DNA of 64,000 nt from Saprospirales bacterium (GTDB lineage: Bacteria; Bacteroidota; Bacteroidia; Chitinophagales; Saprospiraceae), in contig PAAY01000027.1 in the NCBI GenBank assembly GCA_002698985.1, positions 11,231 through 75,230 of the forward strand. Reading direction: 5' to 3'. This document shows, piece after piece, positions 10,915 through 48,388 of the stretch (the first letter of the stretch is position 1; each line of letters starts with the position of its first letter). The translations under genes and the position numbers were made by a program. Below the pieces are notes generated by a model that saw only the letters and a program-made list of their open reading frames with translations, searched no databases and was not told where the DNA came from.

Positions 10915-13116
10915 TCATTCGTTACCCTTTGCTTCCCGCTCGTCCAACACGGCCAGCCCTTGGAGTACATTTTTTGAATACGGATGTTCCGCCCCCAACT
11001 TCGACAAAAAGACCGCTTTCGCCTTTTCGAGGAGGCTGCGCGCTTCACCGAACTCTTTCATGTTCATGAGCACGGCGGCCAGGTTTGAGTAACTCACAGC
11101 GGTGTTGGGATGTTCGGTGCCAAAATTTTTCTCATCAGACTCCACGGCCTTTTCCAATAGCTCCTTTGCCCCTTTGTAATCTCCGAGGGCCTTAAGCACC
11201 GAAGCCAGGTTTGAGTAAGTCACAGCGGTTGTGGGATGTTCTGGGCCAAAATTTTTCTCCGCAGATTCCATGGCCTTTTGCAATAGCCCCTTTGCCGCCT
11301 TGTAATCTCCGAGGGCCTGAAGCACCGAAGCCAGGTTTGAGTAAGTCACAGCGGTTGTGGGATGGTGGGGGCCAAAATTTTTCTCATCAGACTCCACGGC
11401 CTTTTCCAATAGCCCCTTTGCCGCCTTGTAATCTCCGAGGGCCTGAAGCACCGAAGCCAGGTTTGAGTAAGTCACAGCGGTTTTGGGATGGTGGGGGCCA
11501 AAATTTTTCTCATCAGACTCCATGGCCTTTTGCAATAGCCCCTTTGCCCCCTTGTAATCTCCGAGGTCCTTAAGCACTAAAGCCAGGTTTGAGTAACTCA
11601 CAGCGGTGTTGGGATGTTCTGGGCCAAAATTTTTCTCATCAGACTCCATGGCCTTTTCCAATAGCTCCTTTGCCGCCTTGTAATCTCCGAGGGCCTGAAG
11701 CACTAAAGCCAGGTTTGAGTAAATCACAGCGGTTTTGGGATGTTCTGGGCCAAAATTTTTCTCCGCAGATTCCATGGCCTTTTGCAATAGCCCCTTTGCC
11801 CCCTTGTAATCTCCGAGGTCCTTAAGCCTCAAACCCAAGTTGTTTCGGAGGGTAGCCTTTTCACTGAATTCGAGGTGTTCGGCGGCATCGAGCACGGCCT
11901 GCCCGTAGGGTATCCAGGGGAATTTGTCCACCGGGTTGTCTTTCGTTTGGTCTATGTAGAGTTTTTGTGTAAAAGTTTCCACCAGCGGCAGCAAGTCTTC
12001 AAGGGTGGGTGGGTGGGCATGGGCTACAATGGCTTTTATCAGCCGGTGGGTGCCGTAGCGGTGTTTGGCGGGTTGCATGAGCCAGCCTAGCTTATAAAGT
12101 GTCTGTAGGTTGTTGGCAAAGGCAGTGGTCTGCCCTTCTTCGATTTGGAACCACTCGGCCAGGTCTTTGGCGGGGTATCCTTCGGCAGTAGGGGGCAGGG
12201 CGGCCATTTGCTTCAGCAGTCGCATCAGTTCGGGGCGTTGCGCAATGCCGGAGAGGTCGAAGGCCTGCAAGAGGTGGCGGTACAAAGTGGTTTCACCGCC
12301 GGCGTGTTCCAGTTCCACGATGGTTTGCAGGCTGGCAGCATCGAGCTGGTTGTTCTTCAGGTATTCGGCTAGCTCTTCCACGGTTTCCATTATCGGGTGG
12401 GTGTCCAGGATCTTGGCAAAGAGCTCGATGCTGAGGGTGTGCCGCTCCAAAGTGTTTTCCAGAAAGTCAGTCAACGCAGCTTCATCCTGTGGCTTTTCGC
12501 AATGTTTCCGGAAGAGTGCTTTGGCGGCCTCCAGGTCGAGTTTCCCCAATTCTTTCACTTTGATGTTGCCAATGACCTGTCGTGAAGTCAGCAGCACATG
12601 CCAATTTGGACCGTGCGGTAGTTTACCCAGGGCCTCTCTACTCGACTGATCCACATTGTCGAGTACGAGCAGAGCACGTTTTCCCTCTGCACGGTTTTGC
12701 AGAGCAAGCATCATTTTTTCATAAACGGCTTCGTAAGGTTCTCCAGGCTCCTGTTTGATGCCAAGGGCTGCCTGCAAACCTGGATCATTGACCACGGATT
12801 CCTGAAGTGTCGTCTTTTGCTCGATCCAGGCAAGGTGGTCGTACTGTTCCCGGTATTTGTTGGCGTACAGCTTGGCCAGGGTAGTTTTGCCAATGCCACC
12901 TATGCCGTTCATGAGGAGCAGGCTGGAAGATTCCTCCAGCAGTGCTCTGAGGTCCGAAAGGTCATCGTCCCGGCCAATTACGTCGTTGGGATCGATGTGC
13001 GGAATCGAGGTGAGGTAGTGGGGAATTTCCGGTGACTCCGAGCCGTGCATGTGTACCGGCCCGTAATTCTTCTCAATATTGACCTGTTTGTTTGCAATAA
13101 ATTTCTTCTTTTCCAT
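10915..13116 (-). CDS. STAND NTPase: short N-terminal motif + NB-ARC P-loop domain + C-terminal TPR (kinesin-light-chain-like) repeats (NLR-like)
   Basis: Walker A GIGGIGKTTLA and Walker B LLVLDNVD, both typical of NB-ARC. At least 7 x 42-aa TPR units (NFGPEHPxTAVxYSNLAxVLxxLGDYKxAKxLLxKAxES). The N-terminus MEKKKFIANKQVNIEKNYGPVHMHG shares a motif with the upstream small protein. Confidence 0.88.
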   Translation of the reverse strand: MEKKKFIANKQVNIEKNYGPVHMHGSESPEIPHYLTSIPHIDPNDVIGRDDDLSDLRALLEESSSLLLMNGIGGIGKTTLAKLYANKYREQYDHLAWIEQKTTLQESVVNDPGLQAALGIKQEPGEPYEAVYEKMMLALQNRAEGKRALLVLDNVDQSSREALGKLPHGPNWHVLLTSRQVIGNIKVKELGKLDLEAAKALFRKHCEKPQDEAALTDFLENTLERHTLSIELFAKILDTHPIMETVEELAEYLKNNQLDAASLQTIVELEHAGGETTLYRHLLQAFDLSGIAQRPELMRLLKQMAALPPTAEGYPAKDLAEWFQIEEGQTTAFANNLQTLYKLGWLMQPAKHRYGTHRLIKAIVAHAHPPTLEDLLPLVETFTQKLYIDQTKDNPVDKFPWIPYGQAVLDAAEHLEFSEKATLRNNLGLRLKDLGDYKGAKGLLQKAMESAEKNFGPEHPKTAVIYSNLALVLQALGDYKAAKELLEKAMESDEKNFGPEHPNTAVSYSNLALVLKDLGDYKGAKGLLQKAMESDEKNFGPHHPKTAVTYSNLASVLQALGDYKAAKGLLEKAVESDEKNFGPHHPTTAVTYSNLASVLQALGDYKAAKGLLQKAMESAEKNFGPEHPTTAVTYSNLASVLKALGDYKGAKELLEKAVESDEKNFGTEHPNTAVSYSNLAAVLMNMKEFGEARSLLEKAKAVFLSKLGAEHPYSKNVLQGLAVLDEREAKGNE
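11078..11833. repeat. Six near-identical 126-bp tandem units encoding the TPR array of the NLR-like gene
   Basis: GCCAGGTTTGAGTAA recurs at 11078, 11204, 11330, 11456, 11582 and 11708, an exact 126-nt period. Degenerate units flank the array on both sides. Confidence 0.9.
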
Positions 13117-13544: not shown

Positions 13545-13927
13545 TTTCGTAGGACTGTCAGTTTGCTCCTCTGTAGAAGCATACTATTTATTTTAATTCT
13601 TCTCGTTTTCTCTAAGCATGTCTTTTTTGCAGGAATTGCTATCACATAGCCCTGCTCATTATTCATCTGGGTGCAAGGTAAAAAAGTTTTTTAGCAATCG
13701 ATGGATGTTGGTTTTAGTTATCAACCGACGTTGCCCCGAAAAACAAAAAAACTTTTTGTTTCAAAGAGTAAAACAATCAAAAACAAAAAGTTTTAAAACT
13801 CCTTCCCGCCCCTTACCTTTGCCTCCCGGCCCACCGCCGGAGAATCGAACACGCACTCCCCGCATACAAGACTGGACCCAGTGCCCGGCGCATACATGAG
13901 TTTCCGGATCATCGGCAGCGCAGTGCA

Positions 13928-13972
13928 GCCCACTGCCTACTGCCCACTGAACACTGCCCACTGAACACTGCC
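13928..13972. repeat. Short tandem repeat (TGCCCACTGAACAC-type) abutting the dnaE2-like start codon
   Basis: CCCACTGCCTACTGCCCACTGAACACTGCCCACTGAACACTGCC. The reverse-complement module (CAGTGTTCAGTGGGCAGT) occurs inside the gene at about 14815-14832. Confidence 0.85.
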
Positions 13973-13973
13973 T

Positions 13974-16900
13974 ATGCACCTGGCATCGCACACATATTAC
14001 AGCCTGCGCTACGGCACCCTGTCGCCCCGGCAGCTGGTGGAGGCGGCGCAGGCCCGCGGGGTGGAGACCCTGGCCCTCACCGATGTGAACAACACCTCGG
14101 CGGCGGGGGAATTCGTGCGGCTGTGCCGGGAGGCGGGCATCCGGCCCCTGCTGGGCATCGACTTCTTCCGCGACGGGCAGCGGCTCTACACCGGCCTGGC
14201 CCGCAACGCCGACGGCTTCTGCGCCCTCAACCGCTTCCTGTCGGTGCACTCCATCCAGGGGCGGCCCCTGCCCACCCTGGCCAGCGAGTGGGACTGGAAC
14301 CCCGCCGAGGTGGCCTTCATCTACCCCCGCCTGGTCAAGCCCATCGAGCGCTTTGCCGGGTACGAGTACCTGGGCGTGCGGCCCGAGCACGTACACCGGC
14401 TGTTCAGCTCGCCGGTGCGCCACCACCCCGACCGGCTCATCGCCTTCAGCCCCGTGACCTTCCTCGACGAGGAGGGCTGGGAACTGCACCGCCTGCTGCG
14501 GGCCATCGACCTGAACACCCTGCTGTCGAAACTCCAACCCACCGATCACGCCCCAAAGACCGAACTCTTCCACCCGCCGGCCGTGCTGCGGGATTTTTAC
14601 AAGCTCTACCCCCGCCTGCTCGAAAACGCCGGGCGCCTCGCCGAATCCTGCGAGATCGAGCTGGAAACGGGCCTGCACATCAACCGCCAAACCTTCACCG
14701 GCAGCCGAGAGGGCGACTACAAGCTGCTCGAAAAACTCACCCTCGAGGGATTCAAAAGGCGGTTTCCGGAGTGTTCAGTGGCCCCCGATACCGAAAGCTT
14801 TCGGTATCGGGGTCAGTGTTCAGTGGGCAGTAAGCAGTTGGCAGTTGGGCGTTCCGACGCGACCAGAAAGCCCCCTCATCCCTCCCCCGATGCCGATAGC
14901 TATCGGCACGGGGCATCCCCCTCCTCGAAGGGCCCCAGGGGGCTGACCAACCCTACACCCTCAACCCTCAACTCTAAACTCTCAACCCTACACCCTACAC
15001 CCTACACCCGCCTCCACCGCGAGCTCGAGGTGATCCGCGAGATGGACTTCTGCGCCTACTTCCTCATCACCTGGGACATCGTGCGCTATGCGCAGTCGGC
15101 GGGCTACCACCACGTGGGGCGGGGCAGCGGAGCGAACTCGCTGGTGGCCTACTGCCTGGGCATCACCGACGTGGACCCGCTGGAGCTGGACCTCTACTTC
15201 GAGCGCTTCATCAACCGCAACCGGCCCTCGCCGCCGGATTTCGACATCGACTTTTCCTGGGACGAGCGCGACGACGTGACCGACTACATCTTCAAGCGCT
15301 ACGGCTGGGAGTACACGGCCCTGCTGGCCACCTACAGCACCTTCCAGTTCAACGCCGCCGTGCGCGAGGTGGGCAAGGTTTTCGGTTTGCCGAAGGAAGA
15401 AATAGACAACTTTGCCGACGAACTGCTCCGCAAGATGGGCACCGAGGATGTGCGCTACTGGAAGCGCGAGCAGGGTGGCCGGCTGTTGCGCAGCGAAGAG
15501 GAACCCAACCGCCGCCACCTGCCCTCCGACATCCACGCGCAGGTGCTTCGCTTCGCAAAACGGCTGCACGGCTTCCCCAACCACCTGTCCATCCACGCCG
15601 GCGGGGTGCTCATCTCCGAGCGGCCCATCTTCTACCACACGGCCCTGCAGATGATGCCCAAGGGCTTCCCCATCACGCACTTCGACATGCACCACGCCGA
15701 AGACCTCGGCTTCCACAAGTTCGATGTGCTCAGCCAGCGCGGCCTGGGCCACATCAAAGACGCCGTGGACCTCATCAAACTCAACCAGGGCAAGGCCGTC
15801 GACATCCACGACGTGGCCGCCATCAAAAAGGACGAGCGGGTGCGGGCTCAACTGCGCAGCGGCCACTGCATCGGCTGCTTTTACATCGAAAGCCCGGCCA
15901 TGCGGGGCCTGCTCAAAAAGCTGCGCTGCGACACCTACCACCACCTGGTGGCGGCCAGCAGCATCATCCGCCCCGGCGTGGCGCAGTCTGGCATGATGAA
16001 GGAGTACATCCGCCGCTTCCACGCACCCAATTCTTTCGACTACCTGCACCCGGTGTTCAAAGAGCACCTGGGCGAGACCTTCGGCGTCATGGTCTATCAG
16101 GAGGACGTGATGAAGATCGTACACCACTTCGCCGGCCTGGGCCTCGACGAGAGCGACATGCTGCGGCGCCTCATGAGCGGCAAAAAGCGCCAGGGCGACC
16201 AGTTCGAGCTGCTCAAGCGCAAGTACTTCGACAACTGCCGCCGCCTGGGCCACCCCGATGCGCTGGCCAAAGAGGTGTGGCGCCAGATCGAGAGCTTTGC
16301 CGGCTACTCCTTCTGCAAGGCCCACTCGGCCAGCTACGCCGTGGAGAGCTTCCAGAGCCTGTACCTGAAGACCTACTACCCGCTGGAGTTCATGGTGGCC
16401 GTCATCAACAACTTCGGCGGTTTCTACCGCACGGAGTACTACTTCCACGAGGCCCGCATGGCCGGCGCCACCATCCACGCTCCCTGCGTCAACAACAGCC
16501 AGTACCTCACTTCGCTGCGCAACAAAGACATCTACGTGGGCTTCATCCACCTCAACGGCCTGGAGCGACAGACGGCGGCCAAAATCGTGCACCAGCGCAC
16601 GGTGGGTGGCCCCTTCCGCAGCCTGGCCGATTTCATCAGCCGGGTGGACATCGGCGCCAGCCAGCTGGAGCTGCTCATCCGCATCGGGGCCTTCCGCTTC
16701 ACGGGCCTCAGCAAGGGCGCCCTGCTCTGGGAGAAAAACGCCGTGTTCAATCCCCGCGAAAAGTTCGAGGCTTCGGGCCTGCTCTTCCCCGATCCGCACG
16801 AAAACTACGAGCTGCCTCCCCTGGAGGAGGGCCCCTACGACCAGGCTTTCGACGAAATAGAACTGCTGGGCTTCCCGCTCTGCTCGCCCTTCGAGCTGCT

Positions 16901-17231
16901 GGCCGATGCCTCCTGGGCCGCCGAGGGCATCACCGCCGCCGACCTGTCCCGCAGCCTGGGCCGATACGTCACCATGATCGGCTACTACGTCTGCCGCAAG
17001 GACGTGCGCACCGTCAAAAAGGAGCTGATGCACTTCGGCACCTGGCTCGACCGCGACGGCCATTTCTTCGACACGGTGCACTTCCCCAATTTCATCAAAA
17101 ACGCTCCCTTCCGCGGCCGCGGCATCTACCGCATCGAGGGCCGCGTGGTGGAGGAGTTCGGCTTCTGCTCACTGGAAGTGGTGAAGATGGAAAAACTGCC
17201 GTTCAGGAAAGATGAGCGGTATGGAGGATGA
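13974..17231 (+). CDS. DNA polymerase III alpha-subunit family protein, DnaE2/ImuC-like (error-prone type), with an in-frame repeat-derived insertion
   Basis: 1085 aa. N-terminal PHP domain (MHLASHTYYSLRYGTLSPRQLVEAAQARGVETLALTDVNN), then REMDFCAYFLITWDIVRYA, and polymerase core motifs (HAGGVLIS, FDVLSQRGL, FCKAHSASYA). Third codon positions are almost all G/C. The subtype call (DnaE2 rather than replicative DnaE) is inferred from the N-terminal sequence type and the length. Confidence 0.85.
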   Translation: MHLASHTYYSLRYGTLSPRQLVEAAQARGVETLALTDVNNTSAAGEFVRLCREAGIRPLLGIDFFRDGQRLYTGLARNADGFCALNRFLSVHSIQGRPLPTLASEWDWNPAEVAFIYPRLVKPIERFAGYEYLGVRPEHVHRLFSSPVRHHPDRLIAFSPVTFLDEEGWELHRLLRAIDLNTLLSKLQPTDHAPKTELFHPPAVLRDFYKLYPRLLENAGRLAESCEIELETGLHINRQTFTGSREGDYKLLEKLTLEGFKRRFPECSVAPDTESFRYRGQCSVGSKQLAVGRSDATRKPPHPSPDADSYRHGASPSSKGPRGLTNPTPSTLNSKLSTLHPTPYTRLHRELEVIREMDFCAYFLITWDIVRYAQSAGYHHVGRGSGANSLVAYCLGITDVDPLELDLYFERFINRNRPSPPDFDIDFSWDERDDVTDYIFKRYGWEYTALLATYSTFQFNAAVREVGKVFGLPKEEIDNFADELLRKMGTEDVRYWKREQGGRLLRSEEEPNRRHLPSDIHAQVLRFAKRLHGFPNHLSIHAGGVLISERPIFYHTALQMMPKGFPITHFDMHHAEDLGFHKFDVLSQRGLGHIKDAVDLIKLNQGKAVDIHDVAAIKKDERVRAQLRSGHCIGCFYIESPAMRGLLKKLRCDTYHHLVAASSIIRPGVAQSGMMKEYIRRFHAPNSFDYLHPVFKEHLGETFGVMVYQEDVMKIVHHFAGLGLDESDMLRRLMSGKKRQGDQFELLKRKYFDNCRRLGHPDALAKEVWRQIESFAGYSFCKAHSASYAVESFQSLYLKTYYPLEFMVAVINNFGGFYRTEYYFHEARMAGATIHAPCVNNSQYLTSLRNKDIYVGFIHLNGLERQTAAKIVHQRTVGGPFRSLADFISRVDIGASQLELLIRIGAFRFTGLSKGALLWEKNAVFNPREKFEASGLLFPDPHENYELPPLEEGPYDQAFDEIELLGFPLCSPFELLADASWAAEGITAADLSRSLGRYVTMIGYYVCRKDVRTVKKELMHFGTWLDRDGHFFDTVHFPNFIKNAPFRGRGIYRIEGRVVEEFGFCSLEVVKMEKLPFRKDERYGG
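14768..15008. repeat. Intergenic-type repeat modules embedded in frame within the polymerase gene
   Basis: Perfect 30-bp palindrome CCCCGATACCGAAAGCTTTCGGTATCGGGG at 14783-14812. ATGCCGATAGCTATCGGCAc at 14890-14909. CCTCATCCCTCCCC and (CTACACC)x3 at about 14985-15008. It encodes a low-complexity ~75-aa stretch (CSVAPDTESFRYRGQ...STLHPTPY). Confidence 0.85.
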
Positions 17232-17310
17232 AATAGGGATGAGGGATGAGGGATGAGGGATGAAGGCGCTAGCGCTCTCTACTCTCTACTCCCTACTCTC
17301 TACTCCCTAC
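17232..17310. repeat. Mosaic repeat locus filling the convergent gap between dnaE2-like and the FG-GAP gene
   Basis: (GGGATGA)x4, GGCGCTAGCGC, then (TCTCTAC/TCCCTAC)x5. The array supplies the stop codon and the last ~6 codons (RVGSRE) of the minus-strand gene. Confidence 0.9.
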
Positions 17311-23576: not shown

Positions 23577-23812
23577 GTGATGAAAAAGCTAGCGCTTCCA
23601 AACTCTACACCCTACACTCTCAACCCTACACTTTTCTAACCACAGAGTTATCAGAGTTGAAAACAGAGTATAGCAGAGTATTCCTGCTAAACCTTATAAT
23701 CCTCCATAATCCTCCATAATCCTCCATAATCCTCCATAATCCTCCATAATCCTCATAATCCTCATAATCCCACAACCGGCAACCGCCAACCGGTAACCGA
23801 AAACCCCTATCT
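23577..23812 (-). repeat. Mosaic repeat locus (core in minus orientation plus decamer, nonamer and heptamer arrays)
   Basis: GATGAAAAAGCTAGCGC, CTACACC-type units, then the core ...AACCACAGAGTTATCAGAGTTGAAAACAGAGTATAGCAGAGTATTCCTGCTAAACC. Arrays follow: (ATAATCCTCC)x5, (ATAATCCTC)x2 and (CAACCGN)x4. Confidence 0.9.
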
Positions 23813-23844: not shown

Positions 23845-25479
23845 ATGAAAGAACTTACCGGGAACATCATCGACCTGCACAAGCGGCGTATTTATTACGG
23901 GCGGGTGCAGTTTGCCGAAGGAAAAATAATTTCAATCACAGAAGAGGAGGGCAGGAGCGAGCGGTACATCCTGCCCGGCTTTGTGGATGCGCATGTCCAC
24001 GTCGAAAGCAGCATGCTCATTCCCTCCGAATTTGCCCGGCTGGCGGTGGTGCATGGCACCGTGGCCACGGTTTCCGATCCGCACGAAATTGCCAATGTGG
24101 TGGGGGTGCCGGGCGTGGAGTTCATGATTGAAAACGGGCGGCAGGTGCCGTTCAAGTTCAATTTCGGGGCGCCTTCCTGTGTGCCGGCCACGGCCTTTGA
24201 AACTGCGGGTGCCGTGCTGGACGTGGAGGCGGTGACGGCGCTGCTGAAAAAGCCGGAAATCCGCTACCTGTCGGAAATGATGAATTATCCCGGCGTGATA
24301 TTTCAGGATGCGCAGGTCTTGGCAAAACTGGCTGCGGCCAAAGCCTTGAACAAACCCATAGACGGGCATGCACCGGGGCTGAGGGGCGAAGACGCTCGAA
24401 AGTATTTTGCCGAAGGCATCAGTACTGACCACGAGTGCTTCACCTATGAAGAGGGGCGGGAAAAGGCGCAGCTCGGGGTGAAAATCCTGATCCGTGAGGG
24501 CAGTGCAGCCCGGAACTTCGAAGCCCTCATCCCGCTGTTAGAGGAGTTTCCGGAGCAGATCATGTTTTGTTCCGACGACAAACACCCCGACGACCTGATT
24601 CTTGGCCACATTAATCAGTTGGTGGCCCGGGCCCTGGCCAAAGGCTGCGACCTCATCAGCACCTTGCGAGCTGCCTGTGTGCATCCGGTGGAGCATTACA
24701 AGCTGCCCGTCGGCTTGTTGCGGGAGGGCGATCCGGCCGATTTCATCGTGACTTCCGACCTCGAAGACTTTCGAATCGATCAAACCTGGATCAACGGCGA
24801 ACTGGTGGCAGAAAACGGCCGAAGCCTGATTCAACAGGTGGCTTGCCAGCCCATCAATAATTTTCAGACGGAAAAGAAAAGCCCCGAAGATTTTCGCCTC
24901 ACTGCCTCCGGCAGCAACATGCGGGTTATCAAAGCCCTGGATGGGGAGCTGATCACGGAGGAGTTCATGGCTCCGGTGATTGCCCCGGATGGTTTTGCCG
25001 AAGGCGATGAAGAAAAAGATATTTTGAAATTCACCGTCGTCAACCGCTACCAGGATGTGCCACCGGCGATAGCCTTTATCAACGGCTTCAACATCAGGGG
25101 CGGGGCCATCGCCTCTTGTGTGGGGCACGACAGCCACAACATCCTGGCCGTGGGCAGCAACGATGAACTGCTCTGCCGGGCTGTCAACCTTATCGTCGAA
25201 AACAAGGGCGGCATCAGTGCAGTGGCTGCGGATGGAACCGAGATGGTGCTGCCGCTGCCCGTGGCCGGCATCATGACCACCGCCGACGGTTACGAAGTGG
25301 CGAAACTGTATTCCGAGATTGACAAATTTGTGAAAACCAAACTGGGCAGTACCTTGCGGGCGCCGTTTATGACCCTGTCGTTCATGGCGCTGCTGGTCAT
25401 CCCGCAACTGAAACTCAGTGACAAGGGCCTTTTTGATGGAAAGACTTTCCGATTTGTGGATTTGTTTGAAAAGCCGTGA
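23845..25479 (+). CDS. ade: Adenine deaminase
   Basis: 544 aa. Amidohydrolase metal motif [14 protein letters not shown] and a typical Ade C-terminal domain. The stop codon lies inside the first GTGAC heptamer of the downstream repeat. Confidence 0.9.
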
Positions 25480-25522
25480 CTCGTGACTCGTGACACGTAA
25501 CGCGTGACTCGTTGAGTTGGCC
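25475..25522. repeat. GTGACTC heptamer module, interrupted by the IS3-family element
   Basis: CGTGACTCGTGACTCGTGACACGTAACGCGTGACTCGTTGAGTTGGCC. The remainder (AAGTCACGTGAAAGG) continues after the IS at 26919. Confidence 0.85.
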
Positions 25523-26953: not shown

Positions 26954-27220
26954 AGGGATGAGGGGTGAGGGATGAGGGATGAAAAAGCTAGCGCCTCAAA
27001 ACTCTACACTCAAAACCCTACATCCTAAACTTTTTTAACCACAGAGTTAAGCAGAGTTGTTACACGGAGTTGCTCAGAGTTTTGACACGGAGTTTAACGG
27101 AGCTAGCGCCCCCAAACTCTACACCCTAAACCCTACACCCTAAACTCTTTAAAAAACAGAGTATCCCTGCTGAACCCCATAATCCCCATAATCCTCTATA
27201 ATCTTCTATAATCCTCTATA
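26954..27220 (-). repeat. Mosaic repeat locus, long double-GCTAGC variant, minus orientation
   Basis: (GGGATGA/GGGGTGA)x4, AAAAAGCTAGCGC, CTACAC-type units, the core with phased AACTCYG units, a second GCTAGC at about 27102, then CATAATCC/CTATAATC arrays ending 3 nt before the next ATG. Confidence 0.9.
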
Positions 27221-29740: not shown

Positions 29741-30212
29741 ATTGGGGATTATGGTGTTGTAAGTTGTAGGTTGTAAGTTGTAAGTTGACGCAGGAACACT
29801 CCGTTTAACTCTGTTTTTAACGCTTATAACTCTGTGGTTAATTGAGGATTATGGAGGATTATGAAGGATTATGCGGTTCAGCAGGAACACTCTGTTCAAC
29901 TCTGTTTTCAACTCCGATAACTCTGTGGTTTAAAAAGTTTAGGGTGTAGGGTTTGGGGGCTCTAGCTCCGTTAAACTCCGTGTCAAAACTCTGTGCAACT
30001 CTGTGAAATAACTCTGCTCAACTCTGCGGTTAAAAAAGTTTAGAGTGTAGGGTTTAGGTTGTAGAGTTTGGGAGCGCTAGCTTTTTCATCCCTCATCCCT
30101 CATCCCTCATCCCTCATCTCTCATCCCTCATCCCTGATTATGGGGATTATAGGGATTATGGGGTTCAGCAGAACTTGCTACGAGCTACGAGCTACGAGCT
30201 ACGAGCTACGCC
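29741..30212 (+). repeat. Largest mosaic repeat locus, ~470 bp, plus orientation
   Basis: GTTGTAR heptamers (about 29755-29790), two core copies, (GGATTATNNN) units, GCTCTAGC at about 29959 and GCGCTAGC at about 30074, phased AACTCYG units at 29973-30029, (TCATCCC)x7 at about 30087-30136 and (CTACGAG)x4.5 at 30178-30210. Confidence 0.92.
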
Positions 30213-43329: not shown

Positions 43330-43851
43330 TCATTCCTCCGGCTGGAATTTCAAGGCAGCAGAATTGATGCAATAGCGCAGTCCCGTGGGCTTGGGGCCAT
43401 CTTCAAACACATGCCCCAGGTGGCCGCCGCAGCGGGCACAGCGCACCTCTGTCCGCACCATTCCGAAGCTGGTATCTTTAACTTCCTCGATGCAGTAATC
43501 GTTGAGCGGCTGGTAGTAGCTTGGCCAGCCCGTGCCGCTTTCAAACTTCGTTTCCGACGAAAACAGCGGAAAGCCGCAGGCCCGGCAGGTGTAGATTCCG
43601 TCCTCGTGGTTGTTCCAGTACTCGCCGGTAAAGGCCCTTTCGGTGCCTCCCTCCCGCAGTACGTAATACTCAAAAGGCGCCAGCACCTCTTTCCATTCTT
43701 CCTTGCTTTTGATCACTTTTTGAATGGTGTCGCCTTCCGGCGTAATGATTGGACTGGCATCCACGGCCATGCTGTGTGCCTGCTGCGCCTGGTTGCAGCC
43801 AGGACCCAGCAGCAGAATTAGAAGTGGCAGGTAGTTTATGATGCGGTGCAT
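43330..43851 (-). CDS. msrB: Peptide-methionine (R)-S-oxide reductase MsrB (exported/lipoprotein form)
   Basis: Two CxxC zinc motifs ([20 protein letters not shown]) and the catalytic RYCINS. N-terminal signal with LLGPGC. Confidence 0.9.
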
Positions 43852-44062
43852 TTTGTTATGATTATGAGGATTATGGAGGATTATATGGATTATGGAGGAT
43901 TATATGGATTATGGAGGTTGTTGTCGGTTGTCGGTTCCTTAATTTCTGAGCCCCTCATGCCGATAGCTATCGGCATCGGTATCGGGGCTCAGTTCCTCAG
44001 TTCCTCGGTTCCTCAAATCTTCAAATCTTCAAATCTTCAGTTCTTCAGTTCTTCAATTCCTC
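43852..44062 (+). repeat. Mosaic repeat locus, left member of an inverted pair
   Basis: (GGATTATNNN)-type units, (GTTGTCG)x2, a unique stretch GTTCCTTAATTTCTGAGCCCCTC, the perfect 20-bp palindrome ATGCCGATAGCTATCGGCAT at 43957-43976, then octamer arrays (AGTTCCTC, AAATCTTC, AGTTCTTC). Confidence 0.9.
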
Positions 44063-44621
44063 ATTCCTCCAACACCAATCTAATGTTCCAGTTCACGCTT
44101 TGGCCGGTTCTTTCTTCGAAGGTCTTCCAATCGCCGTCGGTGCTGAGGAAGAGCCAGTCGCCGTCGTTTTTGCGGGGGCCGGCATCGCAGCCGATGGACT
44201 GTTGTTCGGCCGGGTGCTGCACCTGAACGGATACCCAAAGGTCTTCATCACCGATGGTGAGGTCAGGGCCGATGGTATGGGTATTCCATGCAGGGGTGTT
44301 CAGGTCATTGGTGACAGTGGCCTGGTACAGGCTGGAGCCGGGTTGGGTGGCCGTGCCCTGGCCGTAAATCCGCACCTTGCAGTCTGCCGGGTTGTTGCCG
44401 GCAAAAAAGCTGACGGCCTGAATTCGTTTGCCCTTGTGGGCAGCCAGATCAGCAGCGGGGAATCTCACAGCCAGTTCGTGAATGCCGGGTGCCAGCAAGG
44501 GTCCCGAAAAATTATCGCCGTCGTAATGCAGCACATTGTTTCCGGTGGGGGCGGGGCTTTCGTCTTTTTGGCAGGAAAGGGTCAGGGTCAGCATTGCAAT
44601 TGCGAAGAAAAAATACTTCAT
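44061..44621 (-). CDS. Lipoprotein, function unknown
   Basis: MKYFFFAIAMLTLTLSC lipobox. 186 aa, beta-rich. Confidence 0.6.
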   Translation of the reverse strand: MKYFFFAIAMLTLTLSCQKDESPAPTGNNVLHYDGDNFSGPLLAPGIHELAVRFPAADLAAHKGKRIQAVSFFAGNNPADCKVRIYGQGTATQPGSSLYQATVTNDLNTPAWNTHTIGPDLTIGDEDLWVSVQVQHPAEQQSIGCDAGPRKNDGDWLFLSTDGDWKTFEERTGQSVNWNIRLVLEE

Positions 44622-44769
44622 GGTCAGACAGGTTTTGGTGTAAAGCTATCTCCCACCAACATTTGCCGTAGGCGAAGCCGGGATAATTAACAGCCTTTTA
44701 GCAGCTGCAGGCAGATTTGACCTAAAAGGAATCCTGAGCCGGTTATCTTTGGCGCCAAATAAAATCAAC

Positions 44770-47184
44770 ATGAAGTTCATTTTTACCTTTTTTACCGCCA
44801 CCTTATTTGTTCTCACTTCGGCCTTCGGCCAACTGACCAGCCTGAGCAAACCCGTCAACAACAGTCCGCTGACCATAACCCAGTTCATGCAGGGCGAGCG
44901 CTTCGTCGGCTTCCTGCCGGAAGACATCCGCTGGTCTTTGGACAGCAAGACCATCTACTTCTCCTGGAACCCCGATGGCGACACATTGCGCAGCGATTAC
45001 AAAATCAGCCTTGACGACAAGGGCAGGGCAGGGGAGCCCCTGAAAGTGGAGCTGGAAGAGCTGAGAACATTGCCCGAAACGGGCGACTACAACAAGGCGC
45101 GCAATGCCCTGCTGTACGATAAAAATGGCGACATCTTTCTGGCTACCCTTTCGGCCTCCGGCCAATGGGAAAGCAGGCAACTGACCAATACCCTGGACCG
45201 GGAAGGAAATCCCCGTTTCAGTGGTGACGAGCAGCAGGTCATTTTCCAGAACGGCGACAACCTGTTCAGTTGGGACCTCAACAGCCACGAACTGAGCCAG
45301 TTAACGGACTTCCGTTCCGGAAAAGAGCGGGGAGAGCGCCCATCTCCGCCACATGAGGCCTGGCTGGAAACTGAAAATATGGAACTGTTCGAGGTGTTGG
45401 CGGAACGCAAACAAAAAGGCGAACTCAGAAGAGAACGCCGCAAGGCCCTCGCGCCTGACAGACCTCTCACCTGGCGATACGGTGATGCCAACATCGGCAA
45501 CCTGCAGGTAACGCCTGATCTTCATTTTGTCACCTTCCGGCTTTACCACGATAGCGACGGAAAAGGCACCGAAGTGCCCAACTATGTGACCGAATCCGGT
45601 CAGGTGGAAATGCTCCGCTCCCGTGAGAAGGTGGGCAGTCCGCAAGGCTGGACGGAACTGGGCATTTACGACCGCCAGCGCGATACGGTGTACCTGGTGG
45701 AGGTGGAGCAGATCGAGGGCATTTACGACAAGCCGGAATTCTTGCGGGAATACCACAAGGATACCACGGAGTACAATCCCAAATACGACAAGCCCCGCAA
45801 GGTGATCTTCAACGGCCCGGTGTTTTCGGAAGACGGGAAAGCCGTGGTGGTCATTCGCAGCCTGGACAACAAAGACCGCTGGATCATGCTTCTAAACCTG
45901 GAAAACGGAAAACTGGAGTTGATCGACCGGCAACGGGACGAAGCCTGGGTGGGCGGCCCCGGCATCAGCGGCTGGAATTTTTCCACCGGAACCCTGGGCT
46001 GGCTGCCGGATAACAAAACCCTTTATTTTCAATCGGAAGAGAGCGGCTTTTCGCACCTGTACCTCTACAATGTTGAGACGAAAAAGAAAAAGCAGTTGAC
46101 CTCCGGCAATTTTGAAATTCTGGATGTGCAGCTTTCCAACGACGGCAAGCTGTTTTACCTGCGCTCCAACCGGGAGAGCCCTTTTGAGCAGCACCTTTAC
46201 AGCCTGCCCGTTGCCGGAGGCGAAATGAAAAAAATTACTTCCCTTCCGGGAAATCACGAGACCTACCTCTCACCCGATGAGCGCTGGATCGCGGTTCGAT
46301 ACTCCTACAGCAACAAGCCCTGGGAGCTGTACCTGATGCCCAATGAAGCCGGAGCGAAAGCTGTTCAACTGACCCGCTCCACCACCAAAGATTTTGAAGC
46401 CTACCCCTGGCGGGAACCTGAGCTGGTGTGGTTCGAGGCCGCCGACGGGGTGAAGGTGCCGGCCCGGCTCTACCGCCCGGAAGCCCCTAAGCGCAACGGT
46501 GCCGCCGTGGTCTTTGTGCATGGCGCCGGCTATCTTCAGAACGTGCACCGCTGGTGGAGCAGTTATTACCGGGAGTACATGTTCCACAACTTCCTGGCGG
46601 ACAACGGCTACACGGTGCTGGACATCGACTACCGGGCCAGCAGCGGCTACGGCCGTGACTGGCGCACCGCCATCTACCGGTACATGGGCGGCAAAGACCT
46701 CTCCGACCAGGTGGATGGCGCCCGCTACCTGGTGGCAGAGCACGGCATCGATGCCGACAGGATTGGAATTTACGGGGGCAGCTACGGCGGCTTCATCACC
46801 CTCATGGCGCAGTTCACGGCACCGGGTGTTTTCAAAAGCGGCGCTGCGCTTCGTTCCGTAACGGACTGGGCGCATTACAACCACGGCTACACCTCCAACA
46901 TCCTCAACACCCCGGTGGAAGACAGCATTGCCTACCGGCGCTCCTCTCCCATTTATTTTGCCGAAGGGCTGAAAGGACACCTGCTCATCCTGCACGGCAT
47001 GGTGGATGTGAACGTGCAGTTTCAGGATGTGGTACGCCTTTCGCAAAGGCTCATCGAACTCGGCAAAGACAACTGGGAAATGGCCGTCTTCCCCATGGAA
47101 GACCACGGCTTCATAGAGCCCAGCAGCTGGGCCGATGAGTACAAACGGATTTACCGGCTGTTTGATAAAACGCTGAGGAAGTGA
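44770..47184 (+). CDS. S9-family serine peptidase (prolyl oligopeptidase / dipeptidyl peptidase type)
   Basis: ORF trimmed to MKFIFTFFTATLFVLTSAFGQ. N-terminal beta-propeller region. C-terminal alpha/beta hydrolase with GGSYGG nucleophile elbow and terminal D/H region (HGMVDVNV, EDHGF). Confidence 0.88.
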   Translation: MKFIFTFFTATLFVLTSAFGQLTSLSKPVNNSPLTITQFMQGERFVGFLPEDIRWSLDSKTIYFSWNPDGDTLRSDYKISLDDKGRAGEPLKVELEELRTLPETGDYNKARNALLYDKNGDIFLATLSASGQWESRQLTNTLDREGNPRFSGDEQQVIFQNGDNLFSWDLNSHELSQLTDFRSGKERGERPSPPHEAWLETENMELFEVLAERKQKGELRRERRKALAPDRPLTWRYGDANIGNLQVTPDLHFVTFRLYHDSDGKGTEVPNYVTESGQVEMLRSREKVGSPQGWTELGIYDRQRDTVYLVEVEQIEGIYDKPEFLREYHKDTTEYNPKYDKPRKVIFNGPVFSEDGKAVVVIRSLDNKDRWIMLLNLENGKLELIDRQRDEAWVGGPGISGWNFSTGTLGWLPDNKTLYFQSEESGFSHLYLYNVETKKKKQLTSGNFEILDVQLSNDGKLFYLRSNRESPFEQHLYSLPVAGGEMKKITSLPGNHETYLSPDERWIAVRYSYSNKPWELYLMPNEAGAKAVQLTRSTTKDFEAYPWREPELVWFEAADGVKVPARLYRPEAPKRNGAAVVFVHGAGYLQNVHRWWSSYYREYMFHNFLADNGYTVLDIDYRASSGYGRDWRTAIYRYMGGKDLSDQVDGARYLVAEHGIDADRIGIYGGSYGGFITLMAQFTAPGVFKSGAALRSVTDWAHYNHGYTSNILNTPVEDSIAYRRSSPIYFAEGLKGHLLILHGMVDVNVQFQDVVRLSQRLIELGKDNWEMAVFPMEDHGFIEPSSWADEYKRIYRLFDKTLRK

Positions 47185-47362
47185 GCCCCGAAGCCGATGC
47201 CGATAGCTATCGGCATGAGGGACTCAGGAATTAAGGAACCGACAACCGACAACAACCTCCATAACCCATATAATCCATATAATCCATATAATCCATATAA
47301 TCCTCCATAATCCTCCATAATCCTCCATAATCCCCATAATCCATATAACCCCACAACAACAC
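47185..47362 (-). repeat. Mosaic repeat locus, right member of the inverted pair
   Basis: Reverse complement of 43856-43992. Palindrome ATGCCGATAGCTATCGGCAT at 47197-47216, then TTAAGGAACCGACAACCGACAACAACCTCC and CATATAATC / CATAATCCTC arrays. Begins at the S9 peptidase stop codon. Confidence 0.9.
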
Positions 47363-47365
47363 CCC

Positions 47366-48388
47366 ATGCAACTGACCATCCACCCCTACACCCTGAAACT
47401 GAAAGAGACCTTTACCATTGCCCGGGGGGCTTACAGCGAGCGCAAGGTTCTGTTTGTTGGCCTCAGTGCTGCGGGCAAAACAGGCTACGGCGAGGCCGGC
47501 GAACACGAGTATTACGGCGTCAGAATAGATGATTTACTGGCAGGAGCTGAAAAGTTGAAGCCCATCGTTCAGGGCTATGCATTCGACAATCCCGCCAACT
47601 TCCACGAGTACATCAAACCCCATTGCGAAGGCAACACTTTTCTGCTGGCGGCATTGGACGAGGCCGCCCACGACCTGTACGGGAAACTGGGAAACAAACC
47701 CTGTTTCGAGCTTTGGGGCTGGCAGCCCGAAGCAGCTCCGAAAAGCTGTTACACCCTGCCCATCGATGATCCGGATACCATGCTTCGAAAACTGCGGGAG
47801 ACGGACTTCAGCATTTACAAGGTGAAGCTGGGAAGCAGCAAAGACCTGGAAGTGATGCGGATGCTGCGGGACAATACCGATGCCATTTTACGAGTGGATG
47901 CCAATTGCGCCTGGACGGTGAAAGAGGCCATTGATAGGTCCGAAAAATTGGCGGAACTGAAGGTGGAGTTCATCGAACAGCCGCTGGCCCATGACAACTG
48001 GGAAGGGATGAAAGAACTGGCCCGCCACAGTGCCCTGCCGCTCATTGCCGACGAATCCTGCCGGACACCGGATGACTTGGAGCGCTGCGCCGAGGTTTTC
48101 AATGGCATCAACATAAAATTGGTGAAATGCGGCGGCCCGACCGCAGCCCTGAAAATGATCAAACTGGCCCGCTCTCTGGATTTGAAAATCATGGGTGGTT
48201 GCATGGTGGAGAGCAGCGTGGCCATTTCGGCCATGGCGCACCTGGCTCCCGCTCTCGATTACCTGGACATCGACGGACCGCTCTTGCTGGCCAACGATCC
48301 CGCAAGCGGTATCCGGCTGGATGAGCAGGGTGGGGTGCATTTCAATGGAAAGCCCGGCTTCGGTACCGACCTGCTTGTGCAGGGTTAG
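47366..48388 (+). CDS. Dipeptide epimerase (L-Ala-D/L-Glu epimerase type, enolase superfamily)
   Basis: MR/MLE-type motifs: KVKLG, RVDANCAWT, IEQPL, IADES and INIKLVKCGG. Confidence 0.82.
   Translation: MQLTIHPYTLKLKETFTIARGAYSERKVLFVGLSAAGKTGYGEAGEHEYYGVRIDDLLAGAEKLKPIVQGYAFDNPANFHEYIKPHCEGNTFLLAALDEAAHDLYGKLGNKPCFELWGWQPEAAPKSCYTLPIDDPDTMLRKLRETDFSIYKVKLGSSKDLEVMRMLRDNTDAILRVDANCAWTVKEAIDRSEKLAELKVEFIEQPLAHDNWEGMKELARHSALPLIADESCRTPDDLERCAEVFNGINIKLVKCGGPTAALKMIKLARSLDLKIMGGCMVESSVAISAMAHLAPALDYLDIDGPLLLANDPASGIRLDEQGGVHFNGKPGFGTDLLVQG

Follow-up and report, generated by a model that had tools for sequence, protein, structure and literature searches.

In a Saprospirales bacterium, a DnaE-family DNA polymerase gene carries an in-frame insert of about 240 nt that is a mosaic of heptamer arrays and GC-rich palindromes, and the same modules fill the intergenic gaps of the window (the whole 64,000-nt stretch of DNA that we analysed). 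The reading that we favour, with a probability of about 0.78, is that repeat material colonised a permissive linker of the polymerase, is read through as a tolerated loop, and has been remodelled under selection for the reading frame.

In the mechanism that we envisage, selfish or neutral repeats of the genome itself (STRR-like heptamer arrays with nested GC-rich palindromic hairpins) would colonise a permissive linker that joins the last PHP-region helix to the first helix of the palm, corresponding to residues ~304-320 of E. coli alpha. The insert would be transcribed and translated straight through into a Ser/Pro/Thr-rich disordered loop of ~80 residues that the enzyme tolerates, and its DNA would change by expansion and contraction of the arrays (slippage) and by gain, loss and replacement of hairpins. 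Since the polymerase is under purifying selection, only insert variants of 3n length without an in-frame stop would get through. No mobilising enzyme was identified in the window.

Repeat modules within and around the polymerase gene

The features of the locus, in window coordinates, are the following:

13861..13899, + strand: upstream direct repeat, CGCATACAAGA and CGCATACATGA, 28 nt start to start (repeat D17)
13928..13972, + strand: GCCCACT/GAACACT heptamer array, 6.4 units, ending 1 nt before the ATG
13974..17231, + strand: DnaE-family DNA polymerase gene, 1085 aa (from the ORF list)
14769..15008, + strand: repeat-derived in-frame insert, codons 266-345, 80 aa (ECSVAPDTES...HPTPYT), predicted disordered loop
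14770..14781, + strand: left fragment of a CAGTNNN heptamer array, AGTGTTCAGTGG, a direct repeat of 14815-14826 that flanks hairpin 1 (repeat family D13)
14782..14813, + strand: variable segment 1, holding hairpin 1
14783-14812, + strand: hairpin 1, a perfect 30-nt palindrome, CCCCGATACCGAAAGCTTTCGGTATCGGGG
14814..14884, + strand: 71-nt core, identical in the sister strain
14814-14848, + strand: array CAGTGTT/CAGTGGG/CAGTAAG/CAGTTGG x2, within the 71-nt core
14885..14913, + strand: hairpin 2, CCCCGATGCCGATAGCTATCGGCACGGGG, nested in a TCATCCC array (repeats D4, I3, I17)
14914..14947, + strand: GC-rich spacer with a short inverted repeat, CCCCCT...AGGGGG
14948..15009, + strand: CCCTACA/CCCTCAA/CTCTAAA-type heptamer array, ~8.7 units, 21-nt superperiod
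17235..17310: AGGGATG x4 and CTCTCTA x5 arrays around a GCGCTAGCGC palindrome, starting 4 nt past the stop codon

According to the first-pass annotation, repeat modules of this genome sit in frame within the polymerase ORF, and this proved correct for 14769-15008, where the used frame has no stop codon and each of the other five has between 1 and 5. The segment of about 75 aa rich in Pro, Ser and Thr that it had described turned out as 80 encoded residues, 72 in excess of the homologue consensus, with Ser, Pro and Thr making up 32 of the 80. The junctions read ...RRFPECSVAPDTESFR... and ...STLHPTPYTR.

Several of the modules recur elsewhere. ATGCCGATAGCTATCGGCA, at 14890-14908, is found again at 43957 and 47197 (6 strand-matches against 0.01 expected), TCATCCCTCCCCCGATGCCGAT, a 22-nt junction of the insert, recurs at 217, and the junctions between hairpin 2 and its TCATCCC array recur at 217-296. 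The CCCTACA-type unit family is also present at 23605-23631, 26995-27022, 27110-27145 and 29943-29960. Beyond its CAGT-type array, the 71-nt core comprises a spacer that is unique and a CCCCTCATCCCTC piece of the TCATCCC array, and no other copy of the GC-rich spacer was found in the window. Hairpin 2 is 80% identical to hairpin 1, with the differences paired such that the palindrome is kept. Hairpin 1 itself had been put forward as a shared module; the perfect palindrome is indeed there, but as a whole it is unique in the window, with half-arms recurring at 43976-43988. In metagenomes, its 22-nt core was found at one further locus only (L129), an intergenic site in the metagenome of the sister strain.

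Overall, 13-mers that recur elsewhere in the window cover 45% of insert positions, compared to a mean of 6.5% and a maximum of 27% in 157 coding control windows. This control was run at k = 12-14, k = 11 being too permissive (45% coverage in the coding controls). Tandem Repeats Finder (TRF) and inspection of the sequence revealed period-7 tandem arrays across the window, mostly intergenic and of many unit types, resembling STRRs; by TRF the intergenic arrays have periods of 7, 14, 8, 9 or 10 nt and the intragenic arrays a period of 21 nt.

The array that abuts the start codon (13928-13972) is the inverted counterpart of the internal array at 14814-14848. A plus-strand copy of CAGTGTTCAGTGGGCA at 14814 is matched by two minus-strand copies at 13941-13970, right next to the ATG (3 matches, 0.07 expected), and the leader at 13936-13970 forms with 14814-14848 an inverted repeat of 35 nt that is 86% complementary, with 843 nt between its arms. 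The inverted module copy upstream of the start codon and the bracketing of the PHP-coding part by inverted repeats, both noted in the first reading of this DNA, are therefore real; nothing suggests that this bracket serves as a switch. Further upstream, the direct repeat at 13861-13899 is conserved in L001, L002 and L127, and its sequence is possibly that of a regulatory site rather than a repeat module.

The insertion site and its turnover among relatives

The polymerase (Pfam domains PHP, residues 2-95; DNA_pol3_alpha, 339-586; finger; HHH_6) has a DnaE2-like order of PHP, palm/NTPase, fingers, HhH and OB regions and lacks a tau-binding tail. Like the short DnaE2/ImuC proteins (~1000 aa) it has a C-terminal OB fold, a degenerate PHP metal-binding motif and no tau-binding domain; the base length of its homologues is ~980 aa, and an AlphaFold model places OB-like beta strands at residues 998-1075. 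It scores above the cut-off of the NCBIfam superfamily model TIGR00594 and below that of the error-prone model NF004225 (471.6 bits against 939), and it is flanked by unrelated genes both in the window and in L001, L002, L007 and L127, with no imuA or imuB nearby. The earlier label "DnaE2-like" thus holds for architecture, but finds no backing in the error-prone model or in gene neighbourhood. Foldseek matches the protein to Pol III alpha structures (E about 1e-46), and its PDFDIDF and KFD catalytic motifs align with those of E. coli.

On E. coli alpha, the insert falls between residues ~304 and ~320. Residues 269-340 are modelled by AlphaFold2 as coil with pLDDT below 50 (26-32 for residues 271-340), lying between confident helices at 245-263 and 343-356; the insert is thus predicted as a disordered loop, which may be exposed at the surface. 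Other low-confidence loops of the model (489-517, 665-676 and 929-948) lie at or beside the other insertion hot spots of the alignment, which follow aa ~509-511, 682 and 941.

As the first-pass annotation had stated, the junction is shorter in other DnaE-family proteins: homologues have a linker of ~9 residues at this position. Inserts of 10-72 aa are present at the site in 12 of 37 aligned sequences, none of them alignable to the insert of the window. Each of three orthologues that we examined (86%, 83% and about 75% identical, the last at 74% in the homologue alignment) holds a different, unrelated in-frame insert at the same site, and small palindromes are visible by eye in the inserts of the 86% and 83% orthologues. 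Among the best 120 polymerase homologues, 50 are at least 1000 aa long over a base of about 980 aa; in a control with GuaA, an internal insert was found in 3 of 120 homologues. Tolerance alone may fall short of a full explanation for this excess. The locus is a natural experiment on which loops of Pol III alpha-type enzymes can take tens of extra residues.

The closest view of turnover comes from a sister strain (P0121, L127, L128), whose polymerase gene is 98.3% identical in nucleotides to that of the window. The two genes show 53 nucleotide differences in 51 codons, 45 of which are synonymous. Variable segment 1 is a 32-nt hairpin segment in the window and a 71-nt heptamer array in the sister strain, a difference of 39 nt (3x13), and variable segment 2 measures 124 nt and 121 nt, respectively. 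Both pairs are equal modulo 3, so the frame is kept in each, in a comparison that is unpolarised as the outgroup inserts cannot be aligned with the strain alleles. In the non-coding upstream array, the sister strain is exactly one heptamer (7 nt) shorter. Two frame-preserving replacements of the insert thus already separate populations that are 98.3% identical in the gene, pointing to fast turnover, which probably proceeds by slippage or template switching. A hypervariable mosaic describes the insert better than a single inserted element does. The two ends of 14769-15008 are not paired by any inverted or direct repeat, as those of a MITE would be, and the 12-nt direct repeat around hairpin 1 belongs to the host array.

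Such turnover could also be that of a contingency or regulatory element, in which 7-nt slippage toggles the frame, or in which the 35-nt inverted repeat modulates initiation or inversion through mRNA or DNA pairing. The heptamer arrays within the ORF, the one-unit difference of the upstream array between the two strains, the statistically non-random inverted repeat and the insert RNA, whose folding (-91.4 kcal/mol) is stronger than that of shuffled sequence (z = -3.2), are consistent with this explanation, but we consider it unlikely. The frame is kept in both alleles and in all six assemblies. Being imperfect and having a 21-nt superperiod, the intragenic arrays would tend to slip without loss of frame. 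The window allele has three perfect tandem units only, no recombinase gene adjoins the locus, no inverted variant was seen, and the orthologues L001 and L002 lack an internal CAGTNNN array. Known phase-variation loci likewise have tandem repeats inside ORFs and change copy number fast; here, in contrast, imperfect arrays go with allele differences of 3n nt, and every allele seen was in frame.

It is decidedly improbable that the segment is a native, lineage-specific low-complexity linker that looks repeat-like by composition only. Family members do differ in length at this site, where E. coli alpha exceeds the minimum by ~15 residues. Against this reading, stretches of 12-22 nt in the insert are matched exactly by intergenic modules, among them the 22-nt junction and a 19-nt palindrome; palindromes with paired substitutions that keep their symmetry make no sense as protein-coding features; and the segment was replaced wholesale between strains that are 98.3% identical. 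Nor does any homologue carry a similar segment of real sequence similarity at this site.

Fate of the insert and of the gene

The colonised-linker reading takes the insert to be translated and tolerated. Removal before the protein functions, by an intron, an intein, translational bypass or DNA excision, would not need an open frame at all, and we regard it as scarcely probable, even though Cys267 stands at the start of the insert and its RNA is highly structured. Against Rfam, 13700-15200 scanned at a permissive E-value retrieved chance-level hits only, to unrelated families and far below gathering scores (best E 0.09-0.34), with no match to an intron model, which speaks against the removal at RNA level that had been suggested. 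An intein is disfavoured by the absence of any intein or Hint domain match in Pfam, by a length of 80 aa, which is too short, and by a C-terminal junction (...PYT|R) without His-Asn. The inteins of DnaE-family proteins resemble this case as in-frame intervening sequences in a Pol III alpha homologue, but the present insert has neither a Hint domain nor splice-junction residues. Excision finds no direct or terminal inverted repeats that bound the insert. No intrinsic terminator or sigma-70-like promoter was found in or near it.

A large foreign segment in a catalytic subunit, together with the degenerate PHP motif, could also mark a gene that is inactivated and on its way to becoming a pseudogene, an option raised in the first-pass annotation. 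The substitution pattern makes this highly improbable: dN/dS is 0.12-0.21 N-terminal and 0.05-0.10 C-terminal to the insert, in lineages that all bear inserts, and saturated or neutral in the insert columns. Purifying selection is acting on the polymerase on both sides of the insert. The preponderance of synonymous changes between the two strains, an ORF that is full length in every relative, and the conserved catalytic motifs all agree with a functional gene. Lastly, short-read metagenome assemblies can mis-join repeats, but an artefact has a negligible probability, as the DNA of the gene and its flanks is identical in four independent assemblies (from different samples and assemblers) and the sister allele is reproduced in two further assemblies.

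Relation to known repeats and spread of the palindrome

In cyanobacteria, heptamer arrays known as STRRs are reportedly intergenic and contain nested, hairpin-forming SDR modules; their presence is said to vary between near-identical sequences and to extend to RNase P RNA genes. The heptamer arrays and nested hairpins described here are similar, and the 19-mer palindrome was seen within RNase P RNA genes of Algoriphagus; the phylum and the unit sequences differ. To our knowledge, in-frame colonisation of conserved enzymes is not the emphasis of the cyanobacterial work.

Rickettsia palindromic elements (RPEs), the precedent invoked in the first-pass annotation, are closest in their relation to coding sequence. 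RPEs are palindromic repeats found in frame in unrelated housekeeping genes, where they are read through at sites compatible with the fold, with further copies in RNA genes and non-coding DNA (Ogata et al. 2000, 2002, via PMC10969869). The insert of the window is likewise in-frame palindromic repeat DNA that is predicted to be read through. Its repeat family is present in the same genome, it is absent from homologues with the frame kept, and the gene is under purifying selection; the short linker of homologues, the predicted disordered loop and the selection on both flanks support the idea of RPE-like repeats in a tolerated loop. Each RPE is a discrete element of ~100-150 bp, and its family has a consensus and a conserved peptide (PMC10969869), whereas the present insert consists of 7-nt arrays and 20-30-nt hairpins, has no fixed consensus and is remodelled between 98% identical strains. 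Its host is of another phylum, Bacteroidota, and the comparison is one of description, not of sequence. Given the different phylum and the modular build, membership in RPE-1 to RPE-10 is very unlikely. We rather see here an RPE-like and STRR/SDR-like case in a new phylum: repeat DNA read through within essential genes, of which Rickettsia offers the best-known examples, would also operate in free-living marine Bacteroidota, with heptamer arrays and mini-palindromes as the repeat type.

Two further systems share single traits with the locus. MacGregor 2015 (PMC4679880; Mrazek et al. 2007 cited there) reports heptamer direct repeats, mostly intergenic, that abut the start codons of genes in Beggiatoaceae, in Cyanobacteria and in a few Bacteroidetes, and points out that stop codons in the reading frames of a repeat limit where arrays can be placed relative to coding sequence. 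The array at 13928-13972 similarly lies directly upstream of a start codon, but that study concerns one intergenic heptamer (TAACTGA), while many unit types, palindromes and an intragenic copy occur here. REP/BIME/REPIN sequences are GC-rich imperfect palindromes of 20-40 nt that form mosaics, are highly repeated and are mobilised by RAYT transposases (PMC3116915); by definition they lie outside genes, and a RAYT gene goes with each family (PMC3116915). No RAYT (Y1 transposase) was seen among the called genes around the locus or the window ORFs scanned, and the sole nuclease association found is with a small GIY-YIG ORF in other genomes. Full-text literature searches returned neither the palindrome nor the heptamer arrays, translated or untranslated (QSAIRNPQ, GCGGATTGCGGATT), and nothing on heptanucleotide repeats in Saprospiraceae.

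The 16-20-nt palindrome occurs in several contexts. It is present in heptamer arrays and in relic tRNA copies, RNase P RNA genes of other Bacteroidota contain it, and it lies in frame within two essential enzymes, AroA and the polymerase. The palindrome-bearing tRNA-like copies are partial 3' copies rather than tRNAs with a long variable arm, and ARAGORN called none of them. At 8 of ~119 loci from different genomes, the palindrome is separated by 14-60 nt from a small stand-alone GIY-YIG gene, and the 19-mer had no match in viral contigs. A speculative possibility, which we hold with little confidence, is that the 16-20-nt palindrome GCCGATAGCTATCGGC and related palindromes with heptamer arms represent undescribed ultra-small mobile DNA across Bacteroidota, perhaps moved by a GIY-YIG nuclease, for which the polymerase would be a preferred landing site. 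The wide spread of one exact 19-mer, in RNase P RNA genes and beside GIY-YIG genes, makes the dispersal of the palindrome experimentally approachable.

These repeats also bear on annotation, as low-complexity peptides of Bacteroidota can be translated repeats, and so can spurious N-terminal extensions such as that of the GuaA ORF in the window. Palindromic heptamer arrays, distinct from the 16-20-mer palindrome, are in frame in 3 of 120 GuaA homologues. The 19-nt palindrome of the polymerase insert is also present, in frame, in an AroA gene elsewhere in Bacteroidota, where it makes a 6-aa insertion and encodes the same peptide, DADSYRHG.

Repeat modules within a DnaE-family polymerase gene

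The first-pass annotation had proposed that a stop-free segment of about 240 nt, built of intergenic repeat modules, adds about 75 Pro/Ser/Thr-rich amino acids to a DnaE2-like polymerase. All the modules it named (the palindrome, ATGCCGATAGCTATCGGCA, CCCTACA-type heptamers, and CAGTGTTCAGTGGGCA with its inverted copies) were found.

Features of the polymerase gene and its insert
13974..17231, plus strand: DnaE-family polymerase ORF, 1085 aa (ORF list, Pfam)
14769-15008, plus strand: in-frame insert of 80 codons, flanked by ...LEGFKRRFP and RLHRELEVIREMDF
14783-14812, plus strand: hairpin 1, a perfect 30-nt palindrome (repeat and exact-match search)
14814, plus strand: CAGTGTTCAGTGGGCA; two inverted copies at 13941-13970, ending one base before the ATG
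14890-14908, plus strand: ATGCCGATAGCTATCGGCA (19-mer of hairpin 2); copies also at 43957 and 47197
14949-15009, plus strand: CCCTACA-type heptamer array (TRF)

The insert, translated as ECSVAPDTESFRYRGQCSVGSKQLAVGRSDATRKPPHPSPDADSYRHGASPSSKGPRGLTNPTPSTLNSKLSTLHPTPYT, is indeed open over nt 14769-15008, with no stop codon in the used frame and one to five in each of the other five frames. Its composition is as proposed (Ser, Pro and Thr account for 32 of the 80 residues), but its size is 80 codons, 72 of them extra relative to homologues. Pfam assigns residues 2-95 of the protein to PHP, 339-586 to DNA_pol3_alpha, 592-756 to the finger domain and 831-915 to HHH_6. Membership in DnaE2/ImuC is unproven; the polymerase scores below the cut-off of the NCBIfam DnaE2/ImuC model, and no imuA/imuB linkage was found near it in the window, in the sister-strain contig L127 or in the more distant orthologue loci L001, L002 and L007. 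The gene has a GC content of 0.64 (GC3 0.88) as compared to 0.53 for the rest of the window, and the same excess is seen in L001, L002 and L007 (gene 0.57-0.60, flanks 0.47-0.54).

Exact matches of 12-22 nt tie the insert to the intergenic gaps of the window, which are packed with tandem arrays of 7-nt units, some of 8-10 nt (TRF), with GC-rich palindromes scattered among them. The array units are of many types, including TCATCCC/AGGGATG, CCCTACA, GTTGTAG, GCTACGA and ATAATCCTCC. Overall, 45% of insert positions fall in 13-mers that recur elsewhere in the window, as compared to a mean of 6.5% and a maximum of 27% in 157 coding control windows; ATGCCGATAGCTATCGGCA has six strand-matches (0.01 expected) and CAGTGTTCAGTGGGCA three matches (0.07 expected). 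Kin of the CCCTACA array occur at 23605, 27129 and 29943, and a second copy of TCATCCCTCCCCCGATGCCGAT at 217 has the same palindrome and the same TCATCCC-array junctions, with an extra hairpin nested in its loop. The shared matches and 13-mer coverage support the claim that the insert is made of the modules of the intergenic gaps, except that the whole 30-nt palindrome occurs only once there. Its 22-nt core has an intergenic copy in the sister strain's metagenome, embedded in a larger palindrome whose arms are heptamer units. Hairpin 1 has 80% identity to hairpin 2, and by eye their central differences are paired, preserving the palindrome (ATACCGAAAGCTTTCGGTAT versus ATGCCGATAGCTATCGGCAc).

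Among the ~42 ORFs of the window, the insert is the only internal heptamer/palindrome copy, all other heptamer-type arrays lying between ORFs or at extreme ORF ends. Tandem repeats inside other window genes are not heptamer-type, as in the 126-nt TPR repeat at 11078-11827. The latter has six copies (91% identity), which encode TPR units of an NB-ARC/TPR gene (10915-13116) that varies in size among assemblies of one population (607, 733 and 775 aa). Heptamer arrays enter gene 3' ends at 17275-17310 and 25475-25512, where repeat DNA supplies the last codons or stop codon of the genes for an FG-GAP protein (minus strand, ends 17293) and adenine deaminase (ends 25479). Elsewhere, an inverted pair of composite elements (43845-44070 and 47180-47370), both containing 9/10-mer arrays, GTTGTCG units and the ATGCCGATAGCTATCGGCAT palindrome, surrounds a block at ~44061-47184 with a minus-strand ORF (44061-44621) and an S9 peptidase gene (44770-47184). 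Between guaA and the next gene, a 45-nt tandem repeat (2017-2172, 3.4 copies) consists of alternating hairpins AGCCTTCAGGCT and TCGACCTTCAGGTCGA, a family distinct from the heptamer arrays.

Recurrent insertion, constraint and strain-level turnover

The best 120 homologues of the polymerase, found in MAGs of Saprospiraceae, Lewinellaceae and other Bacteroidota, have a base length of 978-982 aa, although 50 of them reach 1000 aa or more. The consensus linker at the insert site is ~9 residues long (RRYGxxxxxAxxRxxxELxVIREM) in an alignment of 37 sequences, and the window protein exceeds it by 72 residues, confirming that the insert lengthens the protein relative to homologues. At that site, twelve sequences of this alignment have 10-72 additional residues. 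None of these inserts can be aligned with that of the window, and a few relatives have one short insert in common there. Many of the twelve can be recognised as translated heptamer arrays, repeating every 7 aa (QPTTNNEQPTTNNQ, PPITSHQSPITN), and additional insertion hot spots follow residues ~509-511, 682 and 941. Comparison with orthologues, which the first-pass annotation had suggested, gave same-site inserts of 57 aa in L001 (86% identity), 43 aa in L002 (83%) and 67 aa in L007 (74%, from the alignment). The insert DNA of L001 and L002 is unrelated to that of the window and, by eye, has small palindromes of its own.

E. coli Pol III alpha 297-310 is the counterpart of residues 257-272 of the window protein, and E. 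coli 320 that of residue 342. By the domain limits reported in Lamers et al. 2006, the insert thus lies immediately behind the PHP region, where the palm begins. In an AlphaFold2 model built from the 37-sequence alignment (mean pLDDT 71.9), residues 269-340 form a coil (pLDDT 26-32) between two confident helices, 245-263 (pLDDT 92-95 over 241-260) and 343-356 (pLDDT 84-90). The model's other loops of low confidence (489-517, 665-676 and 929-948) coincide with or adjoin the remaining hot spots, and Foldseek matched Pol III alpha structures with E-values down to ~1e-46.

The first-pass annotation had considered that the gene might be inactivated. In comparison with L001 and L002, dN/dS is 0.12-0.21 upstream of the insert (264 codons) and 0.05-0.10 downstream of it (739 codons), with saturation in the insert columns; the catalytic motifs PDFDIDF and KFD line up with their E. 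coli counterparts. These values and motifs argue against inactivation, and as judged from its sequence the gene is functional. An assembly artefact was rejected on the evidence of four assemblies, from different samples and assemblers, in which the gene and flanking DNA are identical to the window; the insert sequence is genuine. An intein (no Hint domain in Pfam, no His-Asn at the C-terminal junction), an intron (no Rfam match of note over the insert region, best E-value 0.09) and a MITE (no terminal inverted repeats or target-site duplication) were rejected. The insert RNA fold (-91.4 kcal/mol, z = -3.2) is stabler than that of shuffled sequence, as expected from its palindromes, and no terminator-like site or sigma-70-type promoter was found in or near the insert.

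The second member of the 90%-identity protein cluster, P0121 (1099 aa; contigs L127 and L128), represents a sister strain. Outside the insert the two genes differ at 13/794 and 40/2223 nt (98.3% identity), and 45 of the 51 differing codons are synonymous. Within the insert, both strains have the same 71-nt core (14814-14884), and the parts on either side of it are replaced. The first variable segment is a 32-nt hairpin in the window and a 71-nt CAGTNNN array in L127, 39 nt apart in length; the second is 124 nt in the window (hairpin 2, a spacer and the CCCTACA array) and 3 nt shorter in L127, a pure 121-nt TCATCCC/TCACCCC/TCATTCC array. Each replacement independently preserves the frame, whereas the non-coding leader arrays ahead of the ATG are exactly one 7-nt unit apart in length. 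The intragenic arrays show a 21-nt superperiod (L127 10803-10916 and 10940-11059; window 14949-15003), as compared to periods of 7, 14, 8, 9 or 10 nt in intergenic arrays; this is the trace that selection for in-frame slippage products would leave.

Related repeats in other genes and genomes

In a 596-Gb collection of species-representative genomes, the hairpin 2 19-mer occurs at more than 119 loci (~4 expected by chance), nearly all in Bacteroidota (Saprospiraceae, Chitinophagaceae, Bacteroidales, Cyclobacteriaceae and Flavobacteriaceae).

Selected loci with the palindrome
L085:6212-7474, minus strand: EPSP synthase (AroA) of a Saprospiraceae MAG, in-frame 19-nt palindrome at 7056
L075:2709-3146: Algoriphagus type-A RNase P RNA gene, 438 nt, ATGCCGATAGCTATCGGCA palindrome at 2963-2981
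L094:4446-4909: Algoriphagus type-A RNase P RNA gene, 464 nt, ATGCCGATAGCTATCGGCA palindrome inside
L126:5977-6482 and L011:4250-4880: palindrome with GIY-YIG ORF; also L026, L046, L061, L102, L113 and L125

In AroA the palindrome adds six residues as compared to the V. cholerae enzyme (3nvs), with the peptide DADSYRHG, the same as in the polymerase insert. For the RNase P RNA genes the model length is 367 nt, and the palindrome inside them is similar to the STRR insertions reported for the RNase P RNA of cyanobacteria. In eight loci from different Bacteroidota genomes, a stand-alone GIY-YIG ORF (~90 aa, PF01541) lies 14-60 nt from the palindrome. In L126 and L011, both examined in full, the palindrome takes the place of the variable loop within an incomplete 3' copy of the neighbouring tRNA (Met and Asn, respectively), and others of the GIY-YIG loci have tRNA-like flanks. 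From this arrangement, palindrome and ORF may form a mobile cassette with a candidate mobilising nuclease. In the Bacteroidales MAG CAVTDE01, the 19-mer is at the centre of dozens of copies of a ~150-nt repeat (L012, L023, L027, L028 and ~25 more loci) with the layout ...AACCGCAAAGATCGCGAAGGATTTACGCAA[palindrome]CGCAAAGAGCTAATTATTAA....

As a control family, we examined the best 120 homologues of GuaA. Three of these, all Saprospiraceae GMP synthases (P0150, P0169 and P0175), have the in-frame insert ADLGLRNADS...QSAIRNPQ at a single site, after residue 315; it is a translated palindromic GCGGATT/AATCCGC heptamer array; the remaining long homologues are N-terminal miscalls into upstream repeats. 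Together with AroA and the polymerase, these cases show in-frame colonisation of several conserved genes, about an order of magnitude commoner in the DnaE-like family than in GuaA. In the window itself (231-425), the longest GMP synthase ORF begins 65 codons early, inside a repeat/palindrome block (217-345), and similar extensions, apparently over-called starts, occur in ~20 of the 120 best GuaA homologues. Such repeat-driven over-calling seems to be a systematic hazard for gene annotation in these genomes.

The building blocks of the insert are like the STRR arrays and small dispersed repeats of cyanobacteria, reportedly described by Vioque (1997) and Elhai (2008). They are also like the start-codon heptamer repeats of Beggiatoaceae, Cyanobacteria and some Bacteroidetes, as presented in PMC4679880, and the insert behaves like Rickettsia palindromic elements, as presented in PMC10969869. 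The proposal that in-frame repeat modules are tolerated as in the Rickettsia elements holds on repeat sharing, dN/dS and linker position; the repeat insertion in the polymerase is real. Our literature search retrieved no earlier description of the modules in Saprospiraceae, nor of the 19-nt palindrome. What the analysis adds is the remodelling between strains, the recurrence of the hot spots and a mini-palindrome found across the phylum.

The inverted repeat and the polymerase upstream region

The inverted repeats said to bracket the PHP-coding part are real and also present in the sister strain: the leader copies and the internal CAGTGTTCAGTGGGCA array make up a 35-nt inverted repeat whose arms are 86% complementary and 843 nt apart. 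The internal arm is absent from L001 and L002. No recombinase gene was found near the polymerase locus, and no inverted variant of the bracketed region was seen in the assemblies compared. Since in the 64 kb examined the CAGTGTTCAGTGGGCA family is essentially confined to these two nearby sites, local copying of the leader array (13928-13972) in inverted orientation may explain the internal array.

Further upstream, at 13861-13899, lies a direct repeat (CGCATACAAGA and CGCATACATGA, 28 nt start to start) that bears no resemblance to published Bacteroidetes SOS boxes. It is conserved in L001, L002 and L127 and is a possible regulator site.
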